The notes: generated from the letters alone by a model not told the origin. DNA of 64,000 bases from an uncultured Methanosarcinales archaeon (GCA_964602245.1 CAZRPY010000005.1:6176-70175), one strand, 5' to 3'; positions 6,559-63,674 are shown, counted from the first letter of the stretch. Numbers and translations: made by a program.

Positions 6559-6680
6559 CTTGCAACTTTGTGATAGAGTCTATACATGTCAGCTAGAGCA
6601 CTTTACAGCTCTGATATCGTGACTTCGTCCAGAATCACTAATGTGGTTAGCAGACTAACCGCGAGGCTCGTTAATGCAAT
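6559..6680 (-). repeat. structured repeat family 1, copy A (degenerate)
   Basis: TTGCA termini, GAGCCTC, GTAAAGTGC and GTCACGATATCAG shared with other copies. Confidence 0.7.
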
Positions 6681-6717
6681 TATTAATATATAATAAGTAA
6701 TATTATAAATTTGCAAG

Positions 6718-7635
6718 ATGCATAAAATGAGAAATAGCACTAGTGAAAAAGAGATTATTAGAAAATTACCAATATTGCATAAAGGGAATCTCAAAATCAA
6801 GCCTTTGAAAGGTGGAATGACAAATAATAATTATCTTGTTGTAAATAATAGTATTTGCTATGTGGCTCGTTTTGCACCTGAAAAAATAAGAATGCTTGGC
6901 CTGAATAGACAAAGAGAGATATATAATTATAGAATTGCTTCATCTCTAAAAATAGGGCCTAGGTTTATAGCATATTATCCTGCATATAAGCTTCTCATAG
7001 TAGACTATATCCATGGGAAACATATAGATCTAAAAACAATGCAAGATCCTACTATGATTAAAAAACTTGCTCGTTTACTCTATAAATTACACCACGCTAG
7101 GAATATGAAAGGCTCATTTAATCCTTTTAAAAGAGCAAAAAAGTACATACGAACAGCTAAGAAACTAAATAAATGGCTGCCTAAAGGAGTAGAGAAATAT
7201 TTCTCCATTTTTAGAAAAATTGAGAGATTATTCAGCAATAAACAGTTATGTCCTTGTCATTTAGATTTGATGAGAGAGAACATTATTCAAATGCCTAATG
7301 GAGGAATAAAACTTATAGACTGGGAATATGCAAGTAATGCAGATTATAGATATGATCTAGCAATGCTCTCGGTAAAAGGAAATTTTGATTTTAGTGCTGA
7401 TTGGAGATTAGTTAAGGAGTACAGGGGATTTAAAGATGTTAAATTGTATAGACAAATTCAAGCGATGAAAGCTGCTGTTTATTTTGCAGAGGCTTCGTAT
7501 GGTATAGTTCAATTTGCAATTTCTAATGGAAATATAATGTACAAAGATTATGCACTTCTGAATTTAAAAGATTTTCAGAAGGTTATTCCGAAAATTGAAT
7601 TAGATATTAGCTCAAATCAAAAATTATTTAAATAA
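6718..7635 (+). CDS. choline/ethanolamine kinase-like phosphotransferase
   Basis: GGMTNNNY, CHLDL..ENI, LIDWEYA motifs. Confidence 0.88.
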   Translation: MHKMRNSTSEKEIIRKLPILHKGNLKIKPLKGGMTNNNYLVVNNSICYVARFAPEKIRMLGLNRQREIYNYRIASSLKIGPRFIAYYPAYKLLIVDYIHGKHIDLKTMQDPTMIKKLARLLYKLHHARNMKGSFNPFKRAKKYIRTAKKLNKWLPKGVEKYFSIFRKIERLFSNKQLCPCHLDLMRENIIQMPNGGIKLIDWEYASNADYRYDLAMLSVKGNFDFSADWRLVKEYRGFKDVKLYRQIQAMKAAVYFAEASYGIVQFAISNGNIMYKDYALLNLKDFQKVIPKIELDISSNQKLFK

Positions 7636-7656
7636 AGATATTATGCTTTTTGTTCT

Positions 7657-8229
7657 ATGAAAAAGATGAGCAAGGAAAAAAAGAAGGCTGGAAATCCAAT
7701 GCAGGAAGTTGAAGAACTTGAAGAGCTTGACAGTCAGCCTTGTCCATTATGCCATCAAAAAACCTTAATTCTAACTGAATCAGAGACTGAGGTTCCTTAT
7801 TTTGGCAAAGTCTATCTCTACTCTATGACATGTAATAATTGCAAGTATCATAAAGCTGATATTGAATCTGCTGAAAAGAAAGAGCCAGTAAAATATACAT
7901 TTGAGATTTCTTCTGAGAATGATATGAAAGTCAGGGTAGTAAAGTCAAGCGAGGCAACTATTAAGCTTCCTCATATAACTACAATAACACCAGGTCCTGC
8001 ATCTCAGGGATATATAACTAATATTGAAGGGATTCTTAACAGAGTGAAAGCACAGATTGAAACATTAAGAGACACAGCAGAGGATGATGAAGACAAGACA
8101 AAGGCAAAAAAATTATTAAAGAAATTGATAAGAATCAAATGGGGCCAAGAAAAGCAAAAGATAATAATTGAGGATCCTTCAGGCAATTCTGCTATTATAA
8201 GTGAGAAGGCGCAGAAAACGAAATTGTAG
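7657..8229 (+). CDS. ZPR1 zinc-finger protein
   Basis: CPLC..VPYFG..CNNC; ITNIEGIL; IIEDPSGNSAI. Confidence 0.95.
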   Translation: MKKMSKEKKKAGNPMQEVEELEELDSQPCPLCHQKTLILTESETEVPYFGKVYLYSMTCNNCKYHKADIESAEKKEPVKYTFEISSENDMKVRVVKSSEATIKLPHITTITPGPASQGYITNIEGILNRVKAQIETLRDTAEDDEDKTKAKKLLKKLIRIKWGQEKQKIIIEDPSGNSAIISEKAQKTKL

Positions 8230-8280
8230 ATTTATTTACAAAACATTTTTATAGTAGTAATTAAAGAGTTTTACTGCATA

Positions 8281-8849
8281 ATGCAGGGAACTTATTTAGG
8301 TATAGACGAGTCAAATCATGGAAGGTTTCCAGAGATTTTTGTCGGTGTTCTATCAACTGACATTAGTGACACATTTTGGAAACCTAAGCAATTCTCAAAA
8401 ATAAGAAAAATACAGATATTTCAACACTATTAGCAGGAAGAGATTTTAAGTATTTGGCTATACCCTCTGAACTTGGTCTATTATTACCATCAAAAGATTC
8501 AATTAAGATTGTTGCATTCACAGAATTAATAAGGCATTACTTGGCATATGGTCTTAGGGAAGTTTATATTGACGGTGAAATTAGTGATTTTGTCATCGAA
8601 GAGGTAAGAAAGCAATTGTCAGTAATACCTACTATCAAGTATGGAGCTGATGCAGACAGGTCTGTAAAAATAGTTAATATTGCTGATGCAGTTGCGTATA
8701 GATTATTTACATACTATACTGAAACAATAGGTAATAATCATTCTAGATATTCTCAATTTGAGATAACTCCAAATCAAAGTGAATGTACTGCATTAATTAA
8801 ACATCCTAGTTTAGAAGCAAGAGTTACTGAAAAAGTTTTAGTAGGGTAA
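8281..8849 (+). pseudogene. frameshifted RNase H-like (DUF3800/RNase HII-like) gene
   Basis: 5' part MQGTYLGIDESNHG stops at 8433; -1 frame continues from the A5 run at 8406-8410 to ..NIADAVAY.. Confidence 0.6.
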
Positions 8850-8850
8850 T

Positions 8851-9855
8851 TCAATTTGTAACAACAACCCAGTCGTACTTTGGAACAGGTAATACTACTA
8901 TTCTATGTTGCACAGTAGTGTTATTAAGCCCAGGATCGCTAATTGCATCCATAAATTTCTTTGCTATACCTGATATTTCTGCATATACTGCTCCATCCCT
9001 TAGCCTAAATATATCATGACCCTTTCCTTCTGAAACAGCTCTTGATTTGCCTTCAGCAATATATTCCTTTATGCCATCATAAACTCCTTTATATTTAATA
9101 ATCTCTCTAGGAGACATCATGTCCATTACCAAGAATCTGCCAATTCTAAACCCATCTATGATAGTAGTATCTAAATCCTCGTCATGAATCATCTCTGCCT
9201 TTATTTTATCTCTTACATTCTCTATTATTATTTTTTCTATTAATTTAAGCTGCTCCTTTGCAATTCTATACCTTCTAGCATTTAATGGTGTTAATTTTCC
9301 AAAATCTCTTAATGACAAGTTAGCTAATGCTGTAGCATCTTCTAGATTATATTCTGGTGGATTATACTTAATTTCTGGTCTTTTCTCTGCAGTGAACATA
9401 ATCTCCGCTGTTCTAAATTGTCTATAGAGATCTTGAACTGATATATACAGCTTATTGTCTATTTCTAGAACTCCTTCTATCTTCTTGCCTGCTCCCCATT
9501 CACTTAGCATATTGGCCATATATTTTAGCAAACCTCTGCTCATCTCTGCATAGGAAGGGCTAAGTGCAGGTTTTTTCATCCAGAACTGTATATTGCCAAT
9601 CTTTAACTCAAGGCCACCTTTTCCATCTGGCTTTAGATCTCTAACATTCTCATCTTGTCTCCCATTCCATACCTGTACAAGGGTCTTTTCAAAGAAATCT
9701 GTAAAAGAGTCAAGTACTGGAACAGTCCATGTTGTTGCTGCAACATAAAGCTCCAAATCACTCTGCCTTAGATTGTCTATCTCTCTTTCCTCAGCTATTA
9801 CAGCTACATTTAATATATCATCAAATGATAATTGTTGGGAAATTGCTTTTGACAT
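8851..9855 (-). CDS. hypothetical protein
   Basis: Long ORF, likely start MSKAISQQ; no motif recognised. Confidence 0.7.
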   Translation of the reverse strand: MSKAISQQLSFDDILNVAVIAEEREIDNLRQSDLELYVAATTWTVPVLDSFTDFFEKTLVQVWNGRQDENVRDLKPDGKGGLELKIGNIQFWMKKPALSPSYAEMSRGLLKYMANMLSEWGAGKKIEGVLEIDNKLYISVQDLYRQFRTAEIMFTAEKRPEIKYNPPEYNLEDATALANLSLRDFGKLTPLNARRYRIAKEQLKLIEKIIIENVRDKIKAEMIHDEDLDTTIIDGFRIGRFLVMDMMSPREIIKYKGVYDGIKEYIAEGKSRAVSEGKGHDIFRLRDGAVYAEISGIAKKFMDAISDPGLNNTTVQHRIVVLPVPKYDWVVVTN

Positions 9856-9945
9856 AGAACATTTGCAAGTTAAAGAGCTATAAATTTTAATGTGGTGATA
9901 TATATAACCACAAATTATATATAGCCAATTAGCGTTCATTCTGAT

Positions 9946-10668
9946 ATGGATACTGAAATCCTAATAGAGATTGGCCTAACAGCTATAGAAACCAAAGTTT
10001 ATCTCACGCTTTTAGATATTGGGACTTCACTAGCAGGAAATATTGCACAGAAATCAGGGATACATAGGAGAACTGTATACGACGCTCTTGAGAGATTGAT
10101 TGAAAAAGGGCTTGTCACTTATATAAAAATGAATAACAGGCAGTACTACAAAGCTGTGCACCCGTCTAGGCTAAAAGACATATTAAAAGAAAAAGAAGAC
10201 ATTATTAGTAAAATAATTCCTGAGCTTGAAGCTAAATACAATTCATTACAGGAAAAGGAGGAAACATTATTCTTTAAAGGCAGGGAAGGCTTGAAAGCTG
10301 TTTTTGAAGACATGATAAAGAAAAGAGCTGAGATCCTAGTCTTAGGAGCATCTCCTGATGCTTATGATATACTAAAATATTACTTCTTCAAGTTTGATGC
10401 TGAAAGAAAAAGAAATAAAATATCTAGCAAGCTTATTTTCACTGACAGGGCTAGAGGAATAAAAGAGCTTCACAAAGTTCCATTAGCCAAAATCAAATAT
10501 CTGCCAAACAGTTTTGATAATCCAATGGCTATTAACATATACGGCAATAATGTTGCAATTGTCTTGTGGAGAAGTGAAAATCCATTTGCTGTATTAATAA
10601 GAGATGAAGTAGTAGCTAACAGCTATAAAAAGCATTTTGAGCTTATGTGGGGGATTGCTAAGAGATAA
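9946..10668 (+). CDS. TrmB-family transcriptional regulator
   Basis: N-terminal wHTH (GIHRRTVYDALERLIEKGLV) plus PLD-like effector domain. Confidence 0.9.
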   Translation: MDTEILIEIGLTAIETKVYLTLLDIGTSLAGNIAQKSGIHRRTVYDALERLIEKGLVTYIKMNNRQYYKAVHPSRLKDILKEKEDIISKIIPELEAKYNSLQEKEETLFFKGREGLKAVFEDMIKKRAEILVLGASPDAYDILKYYFFKFDAERKRNKISSKLIFTDRARGIKELHKVPLAKIKYLPNSFDNPMAINIYGNNVAIVLWRSENPFAVLIRDEVVANSYKKHFELMWGIAKR

Positions 10669-10712
10669 AGTAAAAATACTAAAAGAATTAAAATAATCAA
10701 AAATAATAAAGA

Positions 10713-10854
10713 TTTGCATACCGGGCACGAACTGCGTGCCTTGCTAAGGTCCGCTTACCACGAATGTAATGAGTGGTTCCGGGACAAAGTCACGATATCA
10801 GTTAAGTATTGTGTGCTAGCGGACAGATATACATGATACACAAACGTTTGCAAA
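10713..10854 (+). repeat. structured repeat family 1, copy B
   Basis: TTTGCA..GGCACG/CGTGCC..GTCCGCT/AGCGGAC..TGCAAA. Confidence 0.85.
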
Positions 10855-10933
10855 TTATCTAACTAAAAGTTTATCAAGAAAAAATATTTAAACCAGCCTC
10901 AAATTCTCTAGTAAATCTCCATGAGGTGTACAA

Positions 10934-11734
10934 TTGATTAAAATCGGCATAATAGGTGGCTCTGGTTTGGATGATCCGAAGCTGCTCAAAGACTACAAGG
11001 AAATTGAAGTTATCACTCCATACGGTAAACCCTCTTCTCCACTTACAGCTGGCAAAATTGGAGATAGAGAAGTAGTTATTATTGCAAGGCATGGCAAAGG
11101 CCATACTATTCCTCCAACATGGGTTAATTACAGGGCAAACATCTGGGCACTAAAAGAACAGGGCTGTACTCATATAATTGTAACAACTGCCTGTGGCTCT
11201 TTAAGAGAGCATATAGCTCCAGGTGATTTTATCTTTATTGACCAATTCATTGACAGGACAACACAAAGAATGTCAACATTTTATGATATGGATAAAGGTA
11301 AGGTTTGTCATATCCCAATGGCAGAGCCATTCTGTCACAAGCTAAGAGTTTTACTAGCTGATACTGCAAGAGAGCTTGACTTAAAATATCATGATAAAGG
11401 AACTATAGTTACAATTGAAGGCCCTAGGTTTTCAACTAAAGCAGAGAGCCACATGTTCAGACAATTGGGTGCAGACGTTATTAATATGAGCACAGTTCCA
11501 GAGGTGGTGCTAGCAAGAGAGGCTGGGATTTGTTATGCTTCGATTGCCATGAGCACTGATTATGATGTCTGGAAAGAGCATGAAGAAGGAGTCAATATTG
11601 ACATGGTATTGCAAACAATGCATAAAAATGCAGAAAATGTTAAAAAACTAATTCTGAGAGTTATACCAAAAATAAAATTTACAGAATGCCAATGCAAAGA
11701 GGATATTAAGAGGGCAGTGATTGGTGGGCATTAG
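10934..11734 (+). CDS. mtnP: S-methyl-5'-thioadenosine phosphorylase
   Basis: [38 protein letters not shown]. Confidence 0.95.
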
Positions 11735-12336
11735 GATAACTTACCAGTTAATACTAAATTTTTCAAGTCCTCAGTCATCTGTTCTTCAGTCTTAAATGGT
11801 TTAATGTACCTAATAAATTCTATTCCTGTGCCTCTATATTTAGACTTTATACCGTCAAATCTCGCTAAAGCTGCCGGAAGTGTAATACGCTCTTCCAATG
11901 GCATTCTAGGATCCATTTCTGGTGTTATAAAAATATTAGTTCCTCGTACACCATTCTCTTGCATAAATGCTGCACTTGCTCCAATCATAATTTCAGGTGG
12001 AACTAAAGTTTTTGCATAGAGATCTTCTCTCTGCTGGTTGAGATATTCAGTAAGAGCAGGAGGAGGTAGTGCAAACTCATGGACATATGAGTCAGGATTA
12101 CCAAATGTTCGTTTTACTTCTTGAAAGAGTAAAGATGCATCAAATTCAAGACTATTATTATATTCAACAACTATAGCAGATGCCCCTAATTCATCTTTTA
12201 ACAGATAAGCTGGGCAAGATTCAGCTGTACCCAATGCAACTAAAGCACCTTCTCTAACAAGAGTACGAGCAAGAAGACTACCTATGGGTGTTAACGCATT
12301 TCCAATAACAATAACTTTTCCTTCTAATTGTTTCAT
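11731..12336 (-). CDS. divergent SDR/Rossmann-like protein
   Basis: [30 protein letters not shown] resembles a degenerate SDR N-terminus. Confidence 0.5.
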
Positions 12337-12444
12337 TGATCCTTGAAAATTAAACGCAATTTATAAACCTTACTCCAGAAAACTATAAATAATACATTAA
12401 ATTGCTAGGTTATAGGTGTAATTAGGTGATATAAGGGTGGTATA

Positions 12445-12972
12445 ATGGATATAAAGAGCAAAATCCGCACAATCCCGGACTGGCCAAAGCCAGGGATAAT
12501 GTTCAGGGATATAACTACTCTTCTCCAAGATCCAGAAGGTTTTGAATTCGTAATAGATGAATTCTATAATAGGTACAAAAATGCAGACATAGATATTGTT
12601 GCGGGCATTGAAAGCAGAGGCTTCATAATTGGCGGGGCTATTGCCTATAAGCTTAAAAAAGGTTTTGTTCCAATTAGGAAAGCAGGCAAGCTTCCTCATA
12701 AGACAGAGCAAGAGGATTACGAGCTTGAATATGCAAAAGCTACTATAGAGGTTCATACCGATGCCATCCATAAAGGCTCAAAGGTGCTGCTTATAGACGA
12801 TTTGATTGCAACAGCGGGAACCTGTGGGGCTGCTATCAATCTCATTAAAAGATTAGGTGGAGATATTGTCGAATGTGCATTTATAATAGAATTACCAGAC
12901 TTGAAAGGCAGGGAAAGGCTAGAGAACAAGGGATATAAGGTATTCTCATTAATCGAGTTCGAGGGAGAGTAA
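12445..12972 (+). CDS. apt: adenine phosphoribosyltransferase
   Basis: PDWPKPGIMFRDIT, GIESRGF, LIDDLIATAGT. Confidence 0.96.
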   Translation: MDIKSKIRTIPDWPKPGIMFRDITTLLQDPEGFEFVIDEFYNRYKNADIDIVAGIESRGFIIGGAIAYKLKKGFVPIRKAGKLPHKTEQEDYELEYAKATIEVHTDAIHKGSKVLLIDDLIATAGTCGAAINLIKRLGGDIVECAFIIELPDLKGRERLENKGYKVFSLIEFEGE

Positions 12973-13136
12973 CCTTTTTATTTTATTCAGTTTAGGTTCA
13001 AGGTTCCTTAGCCTGTCAATAATTAGTAAGGGATACAATTGATACCCATTGTCATCCAAGACCTTTCTTTTTGTATGGAAGAGACAAGTTGAAGGGCTAT
13101 AATATATTCTCGCTGATTGAATACGATAAAGAATAG

Positions 13137-13853
13137 CTACACAAGCTTCCCTCTTTGCCAATCCTCCAGGATCTTGCGCGCCATTCTTTCAATATCAGGC
13201 TGCTGTCCTCTGATAAACAATTTCTTTTTCACAGCAAGTTTCTCCAACACTTCATAAGAGTCGCCTTCAGCCTCAATTCCATAGTGCTCCTCTATCAAGT
13301 CAGGATTCTGCTCTATGAATTCCATGGCGAAGATATCAGGATCTCGCAATTCATGCGGATTCTTCGAGCCAATTGCAACATGTTTGGCAGTATTCTTTTC
13401 TGCATAGGGAATCACTCCTGGTGTGTCAAGAAGGTATATTTTGCCTGCCTTGAACCGCTGCACCCCTCTTGTCATGCCCGCAACACTGCTAACTCTAGCG
13501 CTTGACCTTCCTTTAATCAGGTTAATGACAGAGCTCTTACCCACATTTGGATATCCTAACACGCCTACTTTACATTCCTTTCCTTTACTTAACTCAAGAA
13601 TTTTCTTATATAGCTTTGTGCCGCCCCATCTCTTTGTTGATGACACCACTACCCCAGACTTCAGCATCGCAAAATGGTCAGCACTGAGTAAATCTGCTTT
13701 ATTATAAACATACAGCAGTTTCTTGCCAGCTCTCCTCACCTTATCCTCAACTTCTGCATTCCTTGTTTCATCTGGCATCCGAGCATCTAATACAAGCAGA
13801 ATAATATCACTCCGCGCAATGACCTTGTTGACAATGTTCCAATAATTGGCCAT
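13137..13853 (-). CDS. circularly permuted GTPase (YlqF/RbgA family)
   Basis: DAR, NKAD, GYPNVGKSS, DTPG in permuted order. Confidence 0.93.
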   Translation of the reverse strand: MANYWNIVNKVIARSDIILLVLDARMPDETRNAEVEDKVRRAGKKLLYVYNKADLLSADHFAMLKSGVVVSSTKRWGGTKLYKKILELSKGKECKVGVLGYPNVGKSSVINLIKGRSSARVSSVAGMTRGVQRFKAGKIYLLDTPGVIPYAEKNTAKHVAIGSKNPHELRDPDIFAMEFIEQNPDLIEEHYGIEAEGDSYEVLEKLAVKKKLFIRGQQPDIERMARKILEDWQRGKLV

Positions 13854-14132
13854 TTTCTAAAAGAATATGGCTAGTTCTAAAAATGTTTGCATACATAATA
13901 AGCCATAATTTATATACTACCCTGCTTCTCTATGACTGTAACTCTTTATTCTCTGAATAAAGTCTACAACTACATATGACTCCACTAATCAGAAAATATA
14001 ACACTGTAACAAAATGCAAACTGTGTCATATTAGCATGCTAAATGCTGCTCCAAGAGTATATTATTGTGATAATTGTCAGAAAAGGATTAATAAAAGAGA
14101 TTAGTCAAAAAGAGAAATAAAATAATAAAAAC

Positions 14133-15344
14133 TTAATAACTAACCTTAACCTTATGCTTCTCAGTAATGCCAGCCTCTTTCCTCAATATATCTGCATAAG
14201 TTGTTTGTTCCCATGTAAAGTCTGGATCATTCCTACCAAAATGCCCATAAGCTGCTGTTTTCTTATAGATTGGCCTTCTAAGCTTTAATGTTTCAATAAT
14301 CCATTTTGGAGTAAGCTTAAAATGCTTCTTAACTAGCTCAACTATTTTTTCTTCTGGAATCTTATTAGTTCCAAAAGTATCAACATTAATTGATGTAGGC
14401 TCAGCAACACCTATTGCATAAGATAATTGCACTTCACATTTATCAGCTAATCCTGCTGCTACAATATTTTTTGCCACCCATCTTGCAGAATACGCTCCTG
14501 ATCTATCAACTTTCGTTGGATCTTTCCCTGAGAAAGCTCCGCCACCATGTCTGCCTATACCTCCATAAGTATCCACAATAATCTTTCTGCCAGTAACTCC
14601 TGTATCACCCTCAGGCCCTCCAATGACAAATTTTCCAGTTGCATTTATATGGAACCTTGTATCATCATCCAGCAACATCTGCCCGGTCTTATGTCTATAT
14701 TCTTCAAAAACTGGTTTTATAACCTTTTCAATTATATCCTTCCTTATCTGATGCTGGCTCACATACTCTCTATGTTGCTGTGCAATTACAATTGCATCAA
14801 CTCTTACTTGCTTATCATCTTGATATTCGACAGTGACTTGGCTCTTGCCATCTGGGCCAATATAATCAATTACTCCTTTCTTTCTAACCTCAGCCAATTT
14901 CCTTGTTAAGGCATGTGCAAGCATTATAGGCAATGGCATTAACTCTGGAGTCTCATTTGTAGCAAATCCATACATCATTCCTTGGTCACCAGCACCTTGC
15001 TCCTTGCTTTCTCCTTCATCCACACCTTGCGCAATATCCGGACTTTGCCCATGAATGCTAACCAAAACACCAGCATCCTCACAATCAATACCATATTGAG
15101 GATCAGTGTATCCAATTTCTTTTAATGTCTGCCTTACTATTTTCTGTATATCAGCAAAGCCTCTAGTTGTAACCTCTCCAGCAACTACAACTAAGCCCGT
15201 TGTGGTTAGAGTTTCAACAGCAACCCGAGAATAAGGGTCCTGAGTATATAATTCATCTAAGATTGCATCGCTAATTTGGTCTGCGATTTTATCGGGATGC
15301 CCTTCCGTTACACTTTCCGAGGTGAAATATTCTACTTTTACCAT
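14133..15344 (-). CDS. metK: S-adenosylmethionine synthetase, bacterial type
   Basis: [28 protein letters not shown]; GAGGTG RBS before ATG at 15344. Confidence 0.97.
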
Positions 15345-15463
15345 AGAATTCACCTCATATATAGCATATATAGCATATATACCATACAACCAAAACCCTT
15401 GTACCTTATATAAAGTTTTGTGAATAAAATATTCCGATAGGAATAATTAACTAGCTAAATTAT

Positions 15464-15891
15464 TTAGGAAACGTACCTTAATAAAATAGCATTAGGATCG
15501 TATACTCCTTTTACTTCACCTGATAAGTAAAGAATTTCTCCTTTTCTTGCTTCAACGGAAAGCCTAATTAATTTTACATTGCCCTCTTCTCTGATTTCGT
15601 CAACTTGAAAGACTAATTCTGCTATATCACCAGCATACAAAGGTTTTAAGTATCTCACATTCTCACTAAATAGAAAAGCACCTGGAACCTCTTTACTTGC
15701 CAATCCAACTAAAGTACCTGTAATTAAGCCCCCAGGAACAACTGTTTTTTCTAAACCTTTTTTCTTGCATATTCTATAGAGGTATGAATAGGATTAGAAT
15801 CCCCTACTAGTACACCATATTGAAAAATTTCATCTACACTAAATTCTCTGTGTACAATTTTTTGCTGCCCTTCGACTAATACTCGTACCAT
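15464..15891 (-). pseudogene. MaoC-family hotdog dehydratase split by a -1 frameshift
   Basis: MVRVL..GDSNPIH..YARKKV* then -1 frame GLEKTVVPGG..YLKPLYAGD; break at A-AAA-AAG (~15757-15763). Confidence 0.75.
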
Positions 15892-16008
15892 TTTTATTTG
15901 CTAATTGACATCTTATTTATAAATCTTATTACAAATCCCACAAAAGTCGAACTTATTCTACTTATTCTTAGTAAAATATTTAAATAACCTTATTATTCCT
16001 AACAGAAT

Positions 16009-16557
16009 ATGGCAATTGAGCTTAATGAAATAAAGCATGTAAGGAAGAGGTTTGGATTGACGCAGACGCAACTGGCAAACAAAGCTGAAGTCTCTCAAAG
16101 CCTTATTGCAAAGATAGAGTCTGGCAGGATTGACCCTACATACAGCAAGACAAAGAAGATATTTGAAGTTTTGGACAGCTTAACCCATGAAAAGGATATT
16201 AAAGCTGAAGAAATAATGAATCCAAAAGTGATATCTTTGCATCCAGATGATAATATTAAAGATGCCATTAAGAAGATTAAGCAATATGGAATTTCCCAGC
16301 TTCCAGTTTTAACAAATCATAAAGTAATAGGAACAATCTCTGAAGCAACATTACTTAATGCATTATTGCAAAAGAAAGGCAAGATTGTAAGGGATTTAAT
16401 GGACGATGCCCCTCCCATAGTCACCAAAAAAGCCTCTATCAAGATTATATCAAACCTATTAACATTCTATCCAATGGTATTGGTAGCAGATGATGGAAAA
16501 TTGGAAGGTGTTATAACTAAATCAGATGTTTTAACTAAATTGTATAAAACTGTATAA
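16009..16557 (+). CDS. XRE-HTH + CBS-domain transcriptional regulator
   Basis: GLTQTQLANKAEVSQSLIAKIESGRIDP plus tandem CBS domains. Confidence 0.93.
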   Translation: MAIELNEIKHVRKRFGLTQTQLANKAEVSQSLIAKIESGRIDPTYSKTKKIFEVLDSLTHEKDIKAEEIMNPKVISLHPDDNIKDAIKKIKQYGISQLPVLTNHKVIGTISEATLLNALLQKKGKIVRDLMDDAPPIVTKKASIKIISNLLTFYPMVLVADDGKLEGVITKSDVLTKLYKTV

Positions 16558-16567
16558 AATTTTAAAT

Positions 16568-17323
16568 TTATCTACCCATTCTCTTTATCTGTCTTAATTT
16601 CCCAAACTTATAAACCTCATCAGCCACAATAAAGGCTTCAAATTCATCTAAATTCTGATGTAAATAAGGGCTCAGTAATTTCTCTTTAATCACATCTGTT
16701 CCTTCTGTTACAACATTAAAAGAGGGCAGTACTATCAATTCTTTACCCTTCCATTTACCATGTAAAAAGCATTTATACACCTCAGTCCTTATTCCATCTC
16801 TCAAGGATACTGCAGGATGCTCATTACTTATTATTACTATCTCACATAATGGAAAATTCTCAGGAATTTTATCACCATGTATAAAAAATATTTTTTTATC
16901 ATCAGTTAAATAACTCTCAACTAGCTTTACATTTCTCTTTCTTGCTATAGGCCCAAGTATTGTATCATGATTTCCTTTTACTAATATTATTTCCTTACAT
17001 TTATTACTTAAATAATCCAGAAATTCTAAAGTCTCTTTCCATTCTTGATTAGATATATTGCCAAACTCATGCTTAAGGTCTCCATTAATAATAATAGTGT
17101 TAATATCACCATTTACATTATCTATAATATTCCTGATTCTTTTCATTGTTTCTTGGAACTGAAACCTTGGCACTAAAATTCCTTGCTTATTAAGTGCCTC
17201 TTCATACCCTATATGCACATCCCCAAATACAAGAATTCTATAGTCCTTCAAGTATAATGCAACATCAATTATTTCAAAGCCCTTTTTGAGTTCTATATGC
17301 TTGTTATTTGTTTTATTTGGCAT
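16568..17323 (-). CDS. metallophosphoesterase
   Basis: DVHIG, NGDLKH, GNHD, HG, EHP motifs. Confidence 0.92.
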   Translation of the reverse strand: MPNKTNNKHIELKKGFEIIDVALYLKDYRILVFGDVHIGYEEALNKQGILVPRFQFQETMKRIRNIIDNVNGDINTIIINGDLKHEFGNISNQEWKETLEFLDYLSNKCKEIILVKGNHDTILGPIARKRNVKLVESYLTDDKKIFFIHGDKIPENFPLCEIVIISNEHPAVSLRDGIRTEVYKCFLHGKWKGKELIVLPSFNVVTEGTDVIKEKLLSPYLHQNLDEFEAFIVADEVYKFGKLRQIKRMGR

Positions 17324-17385
17324 AATCTGGAATAATGCTAATTCTTTTAAAAACCTTTATAAACATTTAATAAATTCTTTGCATT

Positions 17386-17694
17386 ATGGACATAAAAGAT
17401 ATTCAAGACAGAGTAATAAAATTTGCACAGAAAAGAGCAGAGGCCAAGAAATTCAAGTTTTCTCCAGAGCTTTCCTACATACATCTGACTGAAGAAATTG
17501 GAGAAATTGCAAGGCAACTATCCAACAAGCAAATCAGGCCTGAGCTATATAACGAAGAAAATCTTAAGGAAGAGATTGTAGATGTAATTCTTGAATCATT
17601 AATACTTGCTTATATTTGTAAAGTAGATTTAGATAAGGATATTAAGAAAAAGATTGATGAATTATTTAGGAAGCATGGGTTTGGTGAAGATTAG
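17386..17694 (+). CDS. MazG-like NTP pyrophosphohydrolase
   Basis: LTEEIGEIA..EEIVDV. Confidence 0.88.
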   Translation: MDIKDIQDRVIKFAQKRAEAKKFKFSPELSYIHLTEEIGEIARQLSNKQIRPELYNEENLKEEIVDVILESLILAYICKVDLDKDIKKKIDELFRKHGFGED

Positions 17695-17748
17695 TATTAT
17701 TAAATTCGTATAGGGTACTTAATAAAATTTAATTTTTTAGACTATAAA

Positions 17749-18177
17749 ATGCTACCAGAACAATTTCAAGAAAAAACCGAGAATATAATAAAACCCTATG
17801 GAATAGCGGTAAGACAGTCTCTCAGTGGATCTGTTTATATAAAACTACCTCGTGCTTCACTATATTGCTATGAAAGACATTCTATTGTCATAAACCCCAA
17901 TCATGGTACTCTTACATACCAAAGTGTATCCGGATATCCTTTAGCTTTCATAAGATACGACTTGACAACAGAAGTTGTAACTGAAGTTTGTATAGAAAAT
18001 TTATATCTAGACCATAGGGTTACTGAAACTGTTGAATCTGCTTTCCACGCAATACAAACTATGAATCTTGAAGACAGTATCTATGCCTTCTGCCGTGCTT
18101 TAGCGATGGCCAGAGAAAATCCGTTGCCTACAGCCCCACCTGCAAAGATTTACACTATAGCCCGGCATAGAAGATAA
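17749..18177 (+). CDS. hypothetical protein
   Basis: 142-aa ORF, no motif recognised. Confidence 0.55.
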   Translation: MLPEQFQEKTENIIKPYGIAVRQSLSGSVYIKLPRASLYCYERHSIVINPNHGTLTYQSVSGYPLAFIRYDLTTEVVTEVCIENLYLDHRVTETVESAFHAIQTMNLEDSIYAFCRALAMARENPLPTAPPAKIYTIARHRR

Positions 18178-18189
18178 ATTAATCAACAA

Positions 18190-19449
18190 TCAAACACCAA
18201 TTCTAGCACTTAACTCAGGAAACAAAGTCAACACAGCAAGCAACAATCCAAGCATAATCACAATCACGCACCCAGCCCATGCAATTATATTAAATAATTT
18301 AGAATTAACATGCCTGCCCATAACTTGTTTATTATTAGTTAGTATCAGCATAGGTATTAAGATAAATGGCAGCAATAATCCGTTAATGACCTGAGAAACA
18401 AGCATAACTTTTATCAGTGGAATTCCAGGAATTAAAACTAAACCTGCAGAGCCTATAATTATTGCAAGGAATATTGTATAATATTCAGGTGCTTCTTTAA
18501 ACTTTTTATTTAATCCATTCTCCCATCCCATGCCTTCAGTAACAGAATAAGCTGTTGATATGGGCAGTATCATTGCTCCAAATAATGCAGCTCCAAACAA
18601 GCCAATAGCAAACAAATAAGATGCATACTGCCCTGCAACTGGTGCTAATGCTGCTGCTGCATCTCCTGCATCATTAATTACTATTCCTGCAGCAAATAAT
18701 GTAACTGCACAAGTAACAATAATAAAAAAAGAGATAAGATTTGTCATTATTGCGCCTAGCCACACCTCAACCCTTGAATATTTGTATTCTTCCTCTTTAA
18801 TCCCTTTCTCGACAATAGTAGATTGCAAAAAGAACTGCATCCAAGGTGTTATATTAGTCCCAATCAATCCAATCAGAATAAATAAATATGGTATACTAAG
18901 TGTAAAATCCGGAACAAAAGCTGCTTTAATCACCTCATTCCAATCAGGCTTTAAGTAGATAGCTGATATAACATATGTAGAATAGAACAATATCATTACC
19001 AAGAATACCTTCTCTAATGTCTTATAGTTAGATTTTATTACAAAGAAACTAGTTACTAGTAAAACAAGAGGTATAACTGTATATTTGCTAATTCCAAATA
19101 TACCTGAGGCAGCTGCAATGCCTGCAAACTCTGCAACAGTAGTTGAGAAGTTAGCCACCACCAATCCCAACATGATATATGCAGTTATTCTTACTCCAAA
19201 ATTCTCTCTTATTAAATCTGAAAGCCCTTTTCCAGTCACAGCCCCCATTCTTGCGCACATTTCCTGAGTCATTGCAAGAAGTATCGTAATAGGAATTAGT
19301 GTCCATAGTAAAGAAAGCCCAAAATGCGCTCCTGCAACTGAGAATGTTGCTATTCCTCCAGCATCATTGTCAACATTAGCTGTAATTATCCCAGGCCCCA
19401 TTACAGCAAGAAAAAGCAACAATGCCTTGAGATTAATTTTATTTTTCAT
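18190..19449 (-). CDS. NRAMP-family divalent metal transporter
   Basis: GPGIITANVDNDAGG, GTNITPWMQFF; multi-TM. Confidence 0.93.
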   Translation of the reverse strand: MKNKINLKALLLFLAVMGPGIITANVDNDAGGIATFSVAGAHFGLSLLWTLIPITILLAMTQEMCARMGAVTGKGLSDLIRENFGVRITAYIMLGLVVANFSTTVAEFAGIAAASGIFGISKYTVIPLVLLVTSFFVIKSNYKTLEKVFLVMILFYSTYVISAIYLKPDWNEVIKAAFVPDFTLSIPYLFILIGLIGTNITPWMQFFLQSTIVEKGIKEEEYKYSRVEVWLGAIMTNLISFFIIVTCAVTLFAAGIVINDAGDAAAALAPVAGQYASYLFAIGLFGAALFGAMILPISTAYSVTEGMGWENGLNKKFKEAPEYYTIFLAIIIGSAGLVLIPGIPLIKVMLVSQVINGLLLPFILIPMLILTNNKQVMGRHVNSKLFNIIAWAGCVIVIMLGLLLAVLTLFPELSARIGV

Positions 19450-20956
19450 TATATTCTAGGATCTTGCTTTTGTCAAAACCAATCTTGATTTTCTTATTCC
19501 TTAAATTTCTAAATCTTTCTAGCTGTCTTATTCTTATAAATTCGTCTATATCCCTAAGAACCTGTCCAATCTCTTTGAAAAGTGTTTTATATACTGGCTG
19601 TTTCTCAGCAACAATTGCTTCTTCAGTCTGCACTATTTTCTTTCCGCTTTCAGTCAACACCTCCTCAATATTTAAGATTCCTTTTATCCTATGCTCTGAA
19701 TCCACAACCGGCAATGCAAGTATATCGTATTTAGCCATTATATCAGTTGCCTCTTTTATTGAATTATTTGTCTTTATACTTATGACTCTCTTTTTCATAA
19801 CATCTTGCACTAAAGCATCTGGATGCGCTAAGACTATATCTCTAAGCGATAACACCCCTACCAAATAATTATCCTCTTCAACAACATAAATATAATGCAA
19901 GATTCTTGGCTTTAACTCCATCTTCCTCAGATAGTCAATAGTCTTCCTTATTGTGAAGTTCTTTGGAACTGCTACATATCTTAAAGATAAAAGCCTGCCT
20001 GCTGACTCAGATGGATAAGTCAGAAGCTCTTTTATCACAACTGAAATCTCTGGCTTCATTAATCCAAGCAGCCTTATTTGTTTTTCGTCATCCACTAAGC
20101 TAAGAACATCTGCAGCCTTATGCCTTGACATTTTCTCAATAATTAAAGCTGCCCTTTTCTCATCTAAGCTATATACCACACTCTTTTTTACAAAATCCTC
20201 AGCCTCTTCAAGGATTCTTGCAGCAGTTCTACTGTTTATTGATTTAAAGACAGACTGCCTTTCCTTAACACTTAACTCTTCCAGTAAATCAGCAAGATCA
20301 GCAGGATGCAGCTCAGATATCTGAGGCATTGCAATATTAATCCTTATTCTCTTTAAGCTATCATTTAATGGCTCTATATTACTCCAAGGCACTAACTGAT
20401 CCTTAATTCTTAACCAATCAACAAGCTTTTTCAACCCTATTCTCCTCAATATTCCTTTCCACCCGATATCTATGCTGACAAGGTTAAACTTATCCTTAAT
20501 CTTTGCTAGTGCAATATCATTCACTCTAATTACTTTTAATCCATTTACGTCAACTAACTGCTTATCCAAGAGCTTATCTGCAATTAGAATATCGCTATCA
20601 TTTATCCTCTCTTTAGGAATTTTATAGAAGGGCTGAGAAAGAGTAATTTTATGGTTAAATGATGAGATATAAGGCCACATGATTTTAATAAAATACTTAT
20701 CATGCTTACAAATAGCAGCTTCAATAACTGGAAATTTCTCACCAGAGGTTACAACCATATCTGTCAAATAACCCACTTTATGCCCATCTGCATCATACAC
20801 CTTCCTGCCTATTAACTGGCTGAAATAGGTTATATCCCTGGCTTTTTTTGTCTCCTCTAGCTCCCTTAGAAAACTGCCTATTTCCTTAATCAAGGCCTCC
20901 CTCTTCGGCTTTGTCCTTAGCTGAGATTCCATCTGCTGAGAAATCATAACCAACAC
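19439..20956 (-). CDS. PRC-barrel + MgtE N-terminal + CBS-domain protein
   Basis: LHPADLADLLEEL; tandem CBS; overlaps the NRAMP gene start. Confidence 0.88.
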   Translation of the reverse strand: MLVMISQQMESQLRTKPKREALIKEIGSFLRELEETKKARDITYFSQLIGRKVYDADGHKVGYLTDMVVTSGEKFPVIEAAICKHDKYFIKIMWPYISSFNHKITLSQPFYKIPKERINDSDILIADKLLDKQLVDVNGLKVIRVNDIALAKIKDKFNLVSIDIGWKGILRRIGLKKLVDWLRIKDQLVPWSNIEPLNDSLKRIRINIAMPQISELHPADLADLLEELSVKERQSVFKSINSRTAARILEEAEDFVKKSVVYSLDEKRAALIIEKMSRHKAADVLSLVDDEKQIRLLGLMKPEISVVIKELLTYPSESAGRLLSLRYVAVPKNFTIRKTIDYLRKMELKPRILHYIYVVEEDNYLVGVLSLRDIVLAHPDALVQDVMKKRVISIKTNNSIKEATDIMAKYDILALPVVDSEHRIKGILNIEEVLTESGKKIVQTEEAIVAEKQPVYKTLFKEIGQVLRDIDEFIRIRQLERFRNLRNKKIKIGFDKSKILEYNEK

Positions 20957-21043
20957 CTATCAAATTCATTATTATTTTATCTAATGACTAAAAACATAGA
21001 ACTCTAATGATATAAAAATGTTGCGGAAGATATTTTTCGGATA

Positions 21044-21670
21044 TCAGCCAGCCTTCTTCTTAATTCTCTTTAGCCTAAAGATATTCTCTCTTTCCATCTC
21101 CTCAAGCCTTAATGTTATAAACATTCTTATTTTTTCAAGCTTAGGTATAATCTCATACTCCAAAGCATTAACTCTTCTCTTTGTCTTTTCAATCTCTTTC
21201 AATAGTTTTTTCATTGAAGTTTCAATCTCTGCAGCCCTAATTACCTGCTCAACAACCCTTTCAAAAGCCTCTGCAGCCTCATCAATCCTTGCAGAGACTC
21301 CCATAAAGCCATATCCTCTCTCAAAACTGCTTCTTCTAAGCTCTGGAGCTTTTATTTTAGGAACTATAACACCCATTATATTCTTTGTTTCCATTCCAAT
21401 CTCAGCAGTATTAACAATGCTCAGGCCAATAGATTTTATAGTTATATCACCCTCTGCTGCTCTGGCAATATTTACCTTCAGTAAAGCTTCTTTATAACTC
21501 TCAATTAACTCTTTTCTAATAGTCTTTGCACTTTTTAATATTTCAAAGAATTCCAATATTAGCCCATCCCTTTTCTTTTTCAGAAGATTATAGCCAGATT
21601 TAGCTAGCCTAATCCTATGCTTAAGCTTAATTAATTCGCTTCTTGTTGGCTTAATATCAATAGTTACCAT
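21044..21670 (-). CDS. atpD: A-type ATP synthase subunit D
   Basis: PTRSEL..LLKKKRDGL..EIEKTKRRVNALE. Confidence 0.96.
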   Translation of the reverse strand: MVTIDIKPTRSELIKLKHRIRLAKSGYNLLKKKRDGLILEFFEILKSAKTIRKELIESYKEALLKVNIARAAEGDITIKSIGLSIVNTAEIGMETKNIMGVIVPKIKAPELRRSSFERGYGFMGVSARIDEAAEAFERVVEQVIRAAEIETSMKKLLKEIEKTKRRVNALEYEIIPKLEKIRMFITLRLEEMERENIFRLKRIKKKAG

Positions 21671-21686
21671 CGTAAATAATTAATTA

Positions 21687-21779
21687 TAGAGAACTTTGAA
21701 TAATTCATTATTTTGACATTTTTCATTCAAAGTTCTCTTAGAGAATTTTGACTATTGGATAATTTTTCAAAATTCTCTA
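21687..21779. repeat. tandem pair of long hairpins
   Basis: AGAGAACTTTGAAT/ATTCAAAGTTCTCT then TAGAGAATTTTGA/TCAAAATTCTCTA. Confidence 0.75.
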
Positions 21780-21794
21780 TAAAATTTTATTATT

Positions 21795-21902
21795 TTTACA
21801 ATTTTGTGTGAATCTTATATATTTGTCCGCTACTTAACATGAACAAACCACCGAAAAGCGGACCTCTGTATAGCCTCTTAGAGAGGCTCGTTAATGTGCA
21901 AA
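21795..21902 (-). repeat. structured repeat family 1, copy C
   Basis: GTCCGCT/AGCGGAC and AGCCTC/GAGGCT stems. Confidence 0.85.
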
Positions 21903-21930
21903 TTATTAATATCAATTTTTATTATTTTAT

Positions 21931-23307: not shown

Positions 23308-23397
23308 AACAGCACCTTACTTATTATAAATGATTTAAATTTAATTTCTGATTTCTTTGAATTGATTTTTAGTTTATTGATTTTGATTTTTTCTTAA

Positions 23398-23540
23398 CTT
23401 GCAACGATTTGAGCATTTGGAATACTTTTCGTTTACGAAAAGTCAGGAACGCTAGTGACTATACCTGTCCGCTAGCGAACTTTACATATTTGATGAGCGG
23501 ACTATTGTAAAGGCACGTAGTTCGTGCCTCGTAATGCTAA
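23398..23540 (-). repeat. structured repeat family 1, copy D (contains the 39-bp module at 23422-23460)
   Basis: GTCCGCT/AGCGGAC and AGGCACG/CGTGCCT stems. Confidence 0.85.
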
Positions 23541-55023: not shown

Positions 55024-55080
55024 AATACACCTCCTGTAAAATCTGATTAGAAATAGGAAGAAGAAATTACTTTTAAACTT

Positions 55081-55131
55081 TGTATTGATTTTGTCAATAC
55101 AGGAAATTTTGTATTTACAGCTTCAATACAA
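55081..55131. promoter_or_regulatory. paired palindromic operators between the tra operon and an RHH gene
   Basis: TGTATTGA-N5-TCAATACA and TTGTATT-N9-AATACAA. Confidence 0.55.
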
Positions 55132-55268
55132 GATTTAAATATTATAATTGGATTTTGATAAACTTAAAATGAATAAAAAAGAAATGATCCAAGAGATTCA
55201 AAGGCAAATGCTTCATAAGATTGCAGGAGCTATTGAAGAAGCAAAGCAGAAGCTGGTTGAGGTAAAGA

Positions 55269-62047: not shown

Positions 62048-62155
62048 CTCCTTTATTTTATAAATTTATCCCTCAATTATAGTACTAACATGATATTTTC
62101 TATTTTTTTAAGAATTTTTCATATATTCTCATATATAAAAGCAAAAAGTTAAGAA

Positions 62156-62683
62156 TTATTTCTTAATCTCCTTTACAACAATTGCGCATTTAGCAGGAAG
62201 CTTATACCTCATCCTGTTCATAGCCTTTAATCCTATCTCAAGATGCTGCTTTTCTATCTTTAATACTGCCAACACTTGCCCTTTTCTAATTTGTGCAGCA
62301 GTACCAATTGGAATGCCAAAGCTATGGCTCATTCCAGTGCTAAACCTGTCTGCTCCTGCTCCTGCTGCTATCTTATTCTCCCTTAATATATGATGTGGAT
62401 AAACCCTTAACTGAAAGAAATATCCAGTTGGCCCAAGTATCTTCTCCAGTAATCTGTTGCTTGTCTGCCTTGCACTTTCCAGAGCATTGCTTCTGATCTG
62501 TAAATCTGCCTTTGACACTAGGCTTATCTCATAATTATAACTCTTTTTATCACTACCCATTACATGCCTTACAATAACCTTGGCAGGGTCTGCCCTAACA
62601 TAAGATTTCTTTTTGAACTTTGATATTCTTGTGTAGGGCCTTTCCAGCCTTCTGTAAGCAACAAATGATCTTAGCCTTGCCAT
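62156..62683 (-). CDS. rpl10e: 50S ribosomal protein L10e (uL16)
   Basis: RVYPHHILRENK..GAGADRFSTGM. Confidence 0.96.
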   Translation of the reverse strand: MARLRSFVAYRRLERPYTRISKFKKKSYVRADPAKVIVRHVMGSDKKSYNYEISLVSKADLQIRSNALESARQTSNRLLEKILGPTGYFFQLRVYPHHILRENKIAAGAGADRFSTGMSHSFGIPIGTAAQIRKGQVLAVLKIEKQHLEIGLKAMNRMRYKLPAKCAIVVKEIKK

Positions 62684-62827
62684 TTTACAGCCTCTTTAGC
62701 CTATTCTCCCATTATTTGCATATAATAAAAATTCTTAGATAAATCTGTAACTCCCCTTTGTAATTAGTATTTCTTTATAAAACTTACGCATCCACAGAAG
62801 TGCCACATACATGTGACAAATAGAAAG

Positions 62828-62878
62828 GTTGAGAAAACATAGTTTTCGAGACCTCTCGGAACGAATAGTTCCGAAAGG
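62828..62878. repeat. twin-hairpin unit
   Basis: GAAAAC-ATA-GTTTTC followed by TCGGAAC-GAATA-GTTCCGA, ~51 bp. Confidence 0.6.
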
Positions 62879-62949
62879 TATATATATTAGATATTTAAAT
62901 ATTAGACTATCTATAAATCAAATATAAGTCAAAAAAGAGGTGTACATTA

Positions 62950-63540
62950 ATGCGCTATAAGCGTTCTAGGAAAGGTTCTCTGAGCTTATCTATGGAAGCA
63001 ATTGTCATACTTATTTTAGCCATAACATTGCTTGGCTTAGGCTTAAGCTTTATGAGAGGACTGTTTAAAGATATTGGCGGCAAGGTAAAAGAGGCTGTTG
63101 ACACTCAATCATTAGTAAATCCTCCAACAAGTGACAATCCTATTACTACTGCACCGAGTAGTTTGGGTTTTAGACAAGGCGAAGACGAGGAGATAGTTGT
63201 TGCATTCTTAAATGTCCTCACAGGCGATGCTAACTGCAATCTCAGGCTAACTGAAGCTGGCAGTAATCGTGAATGCCTTGGAGATGGCCAGACAAGTTGT
63301 GATATCCCAATAGTATTTTCTAGGGCAAAGCTTAATATGAAGAAAGACCAGATTAATACATGGACAATCGCATTATCACCTAGATCAAACCAGCCACAGG
63401 TTGGCCAGACAGGCAAAACCTTTATTTATACTGCAAGAATGGAATGTGATGGTGTTGGCTCAAGAGTTCCTGGCTATGATCCCACAGATCCGCAAGATTC
63501 ATCATATTCAAAGGATATAGTAGTAATAGTTAAACCATAG
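62950..63540 (+). CDS. class III signal peptide (archaeal pilin-like) protein
   Basis: RKG/SLSLSMEAIVILILAI. Confidence 0.8.
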   Translation: MRYKRSRKGSLSLSMEAIVILILAITLLGLGLSFMRGLFKDIGGKVKEAVDTQSLVNPPTSDNPITTAPSSLGFRQGEDEEIVVAFLNVLTGDANCNLRLTEAGSNRECLGDGQTSCDIPIVFSRAKLNMKKDQINTWTIALSPRSNQPQVGQTGKTFIYTARMECDGVGSRVPGYDPTDPQDSSYSKDIVVIVKP

Positions 63541-63570
63541 AAAGTAAAATAAATACTAAAACAATAAAAA

Positions 63571-63674
63571 CTTGCATAACGAGCCTCGAACACGAGGCTA
63601 TACACAGAGTCCGCTCATCAGTAATGTAAAGTGCACTAGCGGACAGATATAGCAAAGTGTGAAATAAGTGCAAA
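63571..63674 (+). repeat. structured repeat family 1, copy F
   Basis: TTGCATAAC-GAGCCTCG/CGAGGCT-GTCCGCT/AGCGGAC-TGCAAA. Confidence 0.88.

Follow-up and report, generated by a model that had tools for sequence, protein, structure and literature searches.

The window examined here is a 64,000-nt stretch of archaeal DNA (assembly GCA_964602245.1, contig C5, positions 6176-70175) from a genome of 1.37 Mb distributed over 42 contigs, with a GC content of 33.8%. Its genes include those for subunits A, B, and D of an archaeal A-type ATPase, the ribosomal protein S6e, and a TrmB-like regulator. Because the best named relatives of atpA come from metagenome-assembled genomes (MAGs) of Woesearchaeota (74%) and Nanoarchaeota (70%), the host is treated below as a presumptive DPANN, Woesearchaeota-like archaeon. 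Its genome is designated G000, and those of its two same-genus relatives G001 and G002. Open reading frames (ORFs) and start codons were taken from our own crude greedy caller, which returned 1499 ORFs covering 87% of G000. Interspersed among these genes are six copies (A to F) of a folded intergenic repeat, and the neighbours of the family's copies are core genes (ATPase A/B/D, S6e, and MTAP). The family is best explained as a genus-restricted group of non-coding, modular, palindromic DNA repeats. With a probability of slightly more than one half (roughly 0.55), we favour a mobile, modular repeat comparable to bacterial interspersed mosaic elements (BIMEs) and to MITEs (miniature inverted-repeat transposable elements), whose hairpins would matter at the DNA level and which would ride passively on transcripts.

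Six copies of this repeat had been described in an earlier note on the same DNA, and all are present at the positions given there. The sense direction is defined here by the order TTGCA, hairpin 1, hairpin 2, tail, and TGCAA, and copy bounds were refined to extend from TTGCA to TGCAA; as the note had it, the flanking ORFs run in the same direction as five of the six copies. Copy E (33828-33931, minus strand) has the canonical four-way form and is the only copy in the window with the full canonical architecture, hairpin 3 included (106.6 bits with the covariance model described below; RNA fold z score of -5.07). Read in the sense direction, its closing stem pairs 33931-33927 and 33925-33923 with 33837-33835 and 33832-33828, around hairpin 1 (33922-33906), hairpin 2 (33897-33862), and hairpin 3 (33854-33838). 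Adjoining copy E is an ORF of the IS5 transposase family (34018-35115, minus strand), scoring 119.6 bits against NF033579, for which the cut-off is 140 bits. Copy F (63572-63673, plus strand; 60.5 bits) has intact hairpins 1 and 2 and a tail of the ATAGCAA..GTGAAA type, devoid of hairpin 3. Copy D (23399-23539, minus strand; 52.8 bits) occupies the atpA/atpB spacer, which is empty in both same-genus relatives, and a hairpin pair (23422-23459, minus strand) found again at G000:C10:37191 replaces its hairpin 3. In the neighbouring atpB/atpD spacer, copy C (21796-21901, minus strand; 47.5 bits) has a degenerate 3' end (TTGTAA). Copy B (10714-10853, plus strand; 26.2 bits) has a tail without hairpin 3 and carries in hairpin 2 a 40-nt twin-hairpin cassette (10758-10797, plus strand) that, by comparison with uninterrupted copies, splits the usual TTATCA into TTA and TCA, with TA on both sides. 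Fold z scores of copies B, C, D, and F range from -1.85 to -3.25. Copy A (6560-6679, minus strand; 13 bits), with a cassette within its hairpin-2 loop, is antisense to the flanking plus-strand ORFs and decayed: the 3' arm of hairpin 1 is gone, a T.T mismatch interrupts hairpin 2 (GTCTGCT/AGCTGAC), and the fold z score is -0.04.

This inventory refines the layout first proposed. Hairpin 1 occurs in the two variants described, AGCCTC/GAGGCT in copies C, E, and F and GGCACG/CGTGCC in copies B and D; the GTCCGCT/AGCGGAC stem of hairpin 2 holds for copies B to F and not for copy A, and a loop of the GTAAAGTKC type (GTAAAGTGC-type) is found in A, D, E, and F. The TTGCA..TGCAA closing stem actually extends to up to 10 bp (TTGCATTACG/CGTAATGCAA), and what was taken for a variable tail forms, in canonical copies, a third hairpin, with the rest of the layout standing as described. 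A complete unit opens with an A-rich leader whose last bases are AAWAATAAY, continues with the core of ca. 105 nt, and closes with an A-rich tail of at least 40 nt. Within the core, the closing stem is followed by a variable hairpin 1, by hairpin 2, the base of which is constant (GTCC..GGAC), and optionally by hairpin 3, canonically GTTGCG-loop-CGCAAC, so that hairpin 3 and the extended closing stem together define a four-way junction.

The fold is supported by extensive covariation. An alignment of 22 copies with MAFFT and RNAalifold missed hairpin 1, which was lost through register shifts, and the structure was therefore specified by hand on a seed of nine canonical copies to give the covariance model R1. 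In the R1 alignment of 38 sense copies, which is fitted to the model and hence biased toward the structure, 94.5% of the 1106 cells pair, and two-sided changes occur in 19 of the 31 pairs (64 cells). None of 500 shuffles reached any of five measures, and sliding the partners by one to three columns lowered pairing to 23-45%. The compensatory changes claimed for the six copies are thereby confirmed, and the structure is more than chance. Helix 3 alone accounts for 42 two-sided changes and no one-sided change, and hairpin 1 occurs in G000 as at least 16 different, perfectly complementary stems. A fourth helix, ATAC/GTAT, which would surround hairpin 2, has only 81% of its cells paired and is uncertain. 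Pairing is almost strictly of the Watson-Crick type: for hairpins 1 and 2 of 52 G000 copies, 635 of 660 cells are Watson-Crick with a single G.T, and outside one doubtful helix G.U cells (18) are about as frequent as A.C cells (17). Folded as DNA, copy E is equally stable on both strands (z scores of -6.14 sense and -6.18 antisense).

Searches of G000 and of related genomes showed that the six copies belong to a large family. Using the six-copy alignment, nhmmer returned 81 matches in G000, 78 of them non-overlapping; R1 gave 93 matches at E<=0.01 that correspond to 83 distinct loci, and 10 long or odd loci detected by nhmmer alone bring the total to ca. 93. These loci are spread over 29 of the 42 contigs, and 83 of the 93 overlap ORF calls by no more than 20 nt and can be considered intergenic. 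Both same-genus genomes were positive with R1 (50 and 9 matches), and none of 38 genomes representing 38 other families of the order (78-100% complete) gave a match. The pattern GTCCGC..GCGGAC is found 68 times in G000, 83 times in G001, and 32 times in G002 (reversed control: 0, 0, and 5), and the form GTCCCCG..CGGGGAC, which is seen in no other genome examined, adds 19 occurrences in G002. Variants of the hairpin-2 stem are species-specific, with T.A in G000, C.G common in G001, and G.C and GTCCCCG in G002; R1 thus undercounts G002, in which this stem differs.

A search of the 64-kb window against Rfam 15 at gathering score gave no match, nor did 12 of 55 fetched copies at E<=1, ribozyme families included. 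The family is real and uncatalogued in Rfam, and the proposal of an undescribed structured repeat is borne out by this outcome together with the compensatory changes and the orientation bias reported below. Literature searches found no paper linking Woesearchaeota with miniature inverted-repeat elements and none on DPANN intergenic repetitive elements with secondary structure. A MITE census lists a "Woesearchaea genome" with 105 MITEs/Mb (PMC11602168), and the family may already be present, uncharacterised, in the sequence list of that census. A stricter hairpin-2 pattern matched no viral contig and three metagenome contigs, with one copy each, 73-87% identical to G000; these contigs are too distant from G000 to provide insertion boundaries. 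A loose version of this pattern, applied across genome contigs, produced chance matches in GC-rich bacteria and was uninformative. Five contigs of a Prevotella MAG (loci L224-L226, L244, and L249) match the loose pattern as AGGTCCGCT..AGCGGACA, which could reflect an unrelated palindromic repeat family or chance.

Within this framework, the repeats are modular. Twin-hairpin cassettes of 40-57 nt are inserted precisely in the hairpin-1 loop, in the hairpin-2 loop, or in place of hairpin 3, and those of the hairpin-2 loop sit between TTA and TCA with TA on each side. The cassette junctions were judged by eye to be devoid of the 3-4-3 motif, and a reading as bulge-helix-bulge introns was rejected. 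At C3:12784 and C4:34087, an identical 3' half followed by 43 nt of A-rich tail is joined to 5' halves of different subtypes, which indicates exchange at hairpin 2. Two copies (L084 and L124) have the loop of this hairpin in inverted orientation with respect to the remainder of the element. Four loci of G001 harbour a full element lodged within the hairpin-2 loop of a second one. A recurrent composite unit was observed in this genome at loci L164, L165, L167, and L168, where the 5' half of an element cut in the hairpin-2 loop is followed by a linker of ca. 20 nt (..AAACTTTAAATAAA..) and then by a full element whose hairpin 1 is long (TAGCATAGTGGTCGCTCAGCTGAAGCTGAGC..). Matches in G001 that had looked like solo copies of hairpin 2 proved to belong to full elements carrying different hairpin-1 modules.

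Conservation extends into the flanks. The flank logo reads AAWAATAAY, TTGCA..TGCAA, and ATTAA, and the terminal inverted repeats (TTGCATTACG/CGTAATGCAA) reach TAAY..RTTA in the flanks. The 9-mer TGCAAATTA occurs 48 times at termini; 18 further occurrences lie outside elements within 160 nt, all with mirror polarity (8 of 8 in the same sense downstream, and 10 of 10 inverted upstream). Read in the sense of the element, the two flanks are A-rich, and in five antisense copies they follow the element and not the genes. Spacers between tandem genes have a median of 270 bp when filled and 71 bp when empty, an excess larger than the core alone.

Comparison with the same-genus relatives revealed insertion polymorphism. 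The atpA-atpB spacer measures 274 bp with copy D in G000, only 20 bp in G002, and 114 bp in G001, where it is AT-rich and element-free. Among 13 loci of the relatives compared with G000, six are filled in both genomes, two are filled in G002 only (the corresponding G000 spacers being 60 and 42 bp long), and five gave no resolution. Five of the six shared sites carry different subtypes, and one pair is clearly the same copy. As judged from 52 copies over 93 well-occupied columns, the mean pairwise identity is 66%, and the copies are thus old. Metagenome contigs from four DNA runs, covering window positions 6000-25900, end inside or beside copies; no junction cleanly skips an element, and consequently no empty-site allele was obtained. 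The family thus breaks assemblies at its copies.

Elements located between tandem genes are in sense orientation in 53 cases and antisense in 9 (p = 1e-8), with 4 versus 2 more where an ORF call overlaps the element, which extends to the whole genome the bias seen in the window. Where local and regional gene directions are discordant, the element follows the local direction in 13 cases against 2, which argues against a replication-coupled bias, and orientation of the IS200/IS605 style was ruled out. Part or all of the bias could arise from fixed-polarity insertion into A-rich tracts: the ratio of A-rich to T-rich windows in tandem spacers without an element is 2.6-4.4:1, which favours the sense orientation, and the 53:9 ratio fits the upper value of this skew (p = 0.24).

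Are the elements transcription units in their own right? In G000, TATA motifs of the TTTATATA/TTTAAATA type form a sharp peak 26-35 nt ahead of start codons, and motifs of the GGAGGTGAT type are uncommon, which points to mRNAs that are mostly leaderless, as predicted from these motif positions. A TATA-like motif is present at -40 to -20 of the elements in 7 of 54 copies with no positional peak, and a run of at least five T within 40 nt downstream in none of the 54. In the absence of a fixed-distance promoter and of an oligo-T terminator, the elements are not transcription units and sense copies should be read through. The usual TATA (-38 to -24) is rarer in front of genes that lie downstream of sense elements (8/54) than in the comparison set (79/274; p = 0.042), lending weak support to co-transcription. 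Among the public sequencing runs listed for window positions 20900-25500, none derives from RNA. Donation of a promoter by the 3' end of the element was also considered and ruled out: the distance to the next start is 35-61 nt in 19 of 40 copies and otherwise spread, solo terminal motifs have no fixed distance to starts, and where one filled site was compared with its empty counterpart, the native TATA was located downstream of the element.

These data bear on the view that the family represents multi-copy, independent small-RNA genes, specifying trans-acting small RNAs, ribozymes, or tRNA-like RNAs. In favour of this view, the elements stand out as GC-rich islands from a genome of 34% GC, have a four-way fold resembling a cloverleaf, and show covariation. 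The lack of a promoter peak in a genome with a sharp TATA signal nevertheless speaks against it, as do the missing terminators, the negative Rfam searches, a tRNA search of the window that returned no call, the restriction of the family to one genus, and modules that are freely swapped and interrupted. We regard this reading as very improbable. The free-standing mobile non-coding RNA envisaged in the earlier note lacks support on the same grounds, and a ribozyme reading found none in the 12 copies searched against ribozyme families.

The reading that we favour, a mobile DNA repeat, accommodates the filled and empty sites, the modular construction, and the terminal inverted repeats. The unit would have spread as DNA, probably through a folded single strand or a terminal-repeat-bound intermediate, and the spread would have been handled by some enzyme, for which no cognate candidate was found. 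Fixed-polarity insertion into A-rich spacers would produce most of the co-orientation with genes, and effects on mRNA would be a by-product. That pairing is strictly of the Watson-Crick type and the same on either strand suggests that the hairpins are kept at the DNA level, either because mobilisation requires them or through templated correction of one arm by the other. Such correction is a known behaviour of quasi-palindromes, and, by analogy, it would explain intact, wobble-free stems without selection.

A number of observations weigh against this reading. There is no sign of recent activity, with only 2 of 1326 copy pairs reaching 90% identity and none reaching 95%, and despite their age 94-98% of stem cells pair, which is inconsistent with the neutral decay of dead copies. 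The one orthologous pair of G000 and G001 is 132/146 identical (90%), compared with ca. 80% over the 2 kb around it. Target-site duplications of 3-9 bp were not detected over 100 offset pairs in 54 copies with 200 shuffles per setting, a duplication of 1-2 bp AT being indistinguishable from the A/T-rich background. The 53:9 ratio exceeds the lower estimates of the spacer skew (p = 0.009 against 72%, and p = 8e-5 against the 63% motif skew), and antisense copies have a median R1 score of 24.4 bits as compared to 52.8 bits for sense copies (n = 11 and 57; p = 3e-4), a gap that was given little weight because cassette-bearing intact copies and unsafe strand calls for weak matches confound it. Nor did the search for a parent element or an enzyme provide a partner. 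Pairs of end motifs 250-5000 bp apart, sought in G000 only, gave no convincing candidate for a longer element with the same ends, and the IS5 transposase beside copy E has neither ends nor a terminal repeat in common with the family. The only PF01797 (Y1 transposase) match of G000, at C3:96165-96509 (locus L158, 1300-1900), lies in a GC-richer island between hairpins of the CCCCGCCC/GGGCG and CCCCGCCCTTCAGGGCG types that are unrelated to the family, and looks like a lone IS200 with no connection to the repeat. IS110 elements and reverse transcriptases were not found in G000, TnpB-like matches remained below threshold, and possession of a 424-aa integrase is not a shared trait of the genus. Since no reverse transcriptase was found, a retro-element origin of the A-rich tail was rejected. 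A second tyrosine recombinase paralogue of the XerA type, considered further below, is present in 33 of the 41 genomes of the order, most of them without the repeat, and two paralogues per genome are common.

Several of these observations would also fit a cis-acting RNA module that, however it arose, is maintained by the host: the stable four-way fold, carried in operon or 3' untranslated region (UTR) transcripts, might block 3'-5' decay, mark a processing site, or prevent misfolding between cistrons. Repetitive extragenic palindromic (REP) and enterobacterial repetitive intergenic consensus (ERIC) elements act in this way on bacterial mRNA, and the repeat may likewise serve in mRNA stability or processing, one of the functions put forward initially. 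Co-orientation with local transcription, including the 13:2 split in the informative cases, a fold conserved in copies that are only 66% identical, and the orthologous pair, which is better preserved than its surroundings and displays an A.T to T.A swap in hairpin 1, are consistent with this explanation, and so are the lower scores of antisense copies, copy A included. The missing T runs indicate that transcription can read through, and the scarcity of TATA motifs downstream of sense elements points in the same direction. Selection at the RNA level, however, usually tolerates wobble, though on the transcribed strand only; the single wobble cell in the two best helices and the similar frequencies of G.U and A.C outside one doubtful helix do not fit this pattern. 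The absence of the family from all 38 other families of the order indicates that it is no general requirement. Moreover, only ca. 9% of spacers are occupied, with no visible preference for a gene set, orthologous spacers function without the element, and the ORF calls and start codons underlying the orientation data come from a crude caller. On balance, this explanation seems to us rather unlikely, though it is the main rival of the mobile-repeat reading. Old copies with intact stems, the better-kept orthologous pair, and, with little weight, the antisense scores would suit a host-level or actively maintained role.

The structural features of the repeat also evoke folded single-strand recombination sites, comparable to attC or to the attP of CTX phage, that would be used by a tyrosine recombinase such as the XerA-like proteins and would represent the footprint of a site-specific system. 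Structure is maintained with a free hairpin-1 sequence, pairing is strictly Watson-Crick, both strands can fold, and no target duplication is seen. Breakpoints fall at hairpin 2, whose loop is inverted in L084 and L124 and whose stem variants are species-specific. Two XerA-like genes are present in G000 (C22:868-1686 and C14:31947-32786; 36% identical to each other), the former being directly downstream of an element (C22:668-803). A single adjacency is nonetheless weak evidence when ca. 9% of spacers carry an element, and most genomes with a second XerA paralogue are repeat-free. No IntI-type integrase was found in G000: against TIGR02249, the XerA-like proteins score 226 and 179.5 bits, below the cut-off of 265, and each match is divided between two stretches; the IntI extra domain appears to be absent in both. 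Neither a cassette array nor an IntI-specific signature or attI context accompanies the copies, which lie among core genes.

The ends of the element had been said to echo integron attC R boxes loosely. The R'' box of attC sites reads RYYYAAC and the R' box GTTRRRY, and the consensus ends TTGCATTACG...CGTAATGCAA do not fit them. Together with the multi-branched fold, the core-gene neighbours, and the missing IntI, this leaves the proposed echo without support, and a recombination-site origin appears improbable. With attC sites, those of archaeal integrons included (PMC9668308), the family has in common a structure that is kept as sequence varies and single-strand folding with Watson-Crick covariation; according to the same source, integron attC sites form tandem arrays of short same-direction cassette ORFs beside intI/attI. 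The repeats differ in having a multi-branched fold instead of one bulged hairpin and in being dispersed among core genes, outside arrays of short same-direction ORFs. Whatever probability is not covered by the readings set out here belongs to explanations that did not occur to us.

Comparison with established repeat classes places the family close to several of them. REP, BIME, and REPIN (paired REP) sequences are extragenic palindromes associated with a REP-associated tyrosine transposase (RAYT) of the Y1 type, with a GTAG head and a single 20-40-nt hairpin or an inverted pair. Like them, the present family consists of high-copy extragenic palindromes found in operon spacers and 3' UTRs, with no target duplication and with folding instead of coding, and the mosaic of palindromic hairpin units and linkers typical of this class is also found here in extragenic space. 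In contrast to them, it has a four-way junction of ca. 105 nt with a 10-bp closing stem, an A-rich leader and tail, and no GTAG head; its host is archaeal, and the sole Y1 gene is associated with unrelated hairpins. The label "REP-like" given in the earlier note is apt as the nearest analogy; a RAYT gene flanked by the repeat was not found in G000.

The pneumococcal BOX, Neisseria Correia, and enterobacterial ERIC elements are likewise strongly folding intergenic repeats of 100-200 nt, either built of modules in the boxA-boxB-boxC manner or bounded by inverted repeats, co-transcribed, and confined to a narrow taxon, in which orientation matters for effects on mRNA. They have no sequence relation to the present family, in which cassettes nest in hairpin loops. 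In Correia elements TA is duplicated and the terminal repeats are long, whereas no duplication was detected here for the whole element. Archaeal MITEs include the PATEs of Haloquadratum. As with MITEs, the repeats are small, non-coding, intergenic, and taxon-specific, with terminal inverted repeats and filled and empty sites among relatives; they differ by the lack of a target-site duplication, of a parent insertion sequence with the same ends, and of near-identical copies. By analogy, the family would function most like REP/BIME, BOX, and MITE repeats, but matches the full definition of none.

The family might also no longer be, or never have been, simple selfish DNA. A more speculative possibility, for which we have limited confidence, is that of an undescribed archaeal system with a folded module that is actively maintained, either for a structure-specific recombinase or repair process or as a domesticated "punctuation" RNA of operons that would be required in the sense direction. 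Such a module would fit the old copies, the Watson-Crick double changes, and the exchange of halves at an invariant hairpin with a species-specific stem; in the case of a recombinase or repair site, activity itself would homogenise and shuffle the copies. Whichever reading holds, ca. 1% of a small DPANN genome is devoted to a folded repeat outside the textbook classes, which inflates intergenic spacers, breaks assemblies, and is liable to be mistaken for small-RNA genes in GC-island screens of AT-rich archaea. A mobile repeat would point to a hairpin-acting mobilising activity in archaea, and a host-maintained one would give archaea an equivalent of the REP-type elements of mRNA.

Scanning the window with the covariance model gave 14 matches at E<=1, both strands counted, and these include traces of further elements. 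A partial copy (924-1014, plus strand; 26.3 bits, E 7.8e-6) is recognisable only from position ca. 975 on, by its hairpin 3 (GGTGCGCAGTTCGCACC) together with the closing arm on the 3' side (..ATAATGCAAATTTAAAA). A weak remnant (5912-5974, minus strand; 11.2 bits, E 0.48) comprises the junction, the 5' arm of hairpin 2, and its loop (GTGCGATTGGTCCGCTTATCATAGCTGTAA), with a degenerate 3' arm, and the match at 55073-55138 is probably due to chance. The largest ORF of the window (37222-43572, plus strand) encodes 2116 aa. Finally, in the AT-rich segment 21700-21790, beside copy C, the summed metagenome depth rises to several hundred, with a maximum of 2147 at position 21752, as compared to ca. 10 elsewhere, and the metagenome contigs differ there by many 1-nt indels; this spike looks like a short sequence common to many organisms or a low-complexity artefact.

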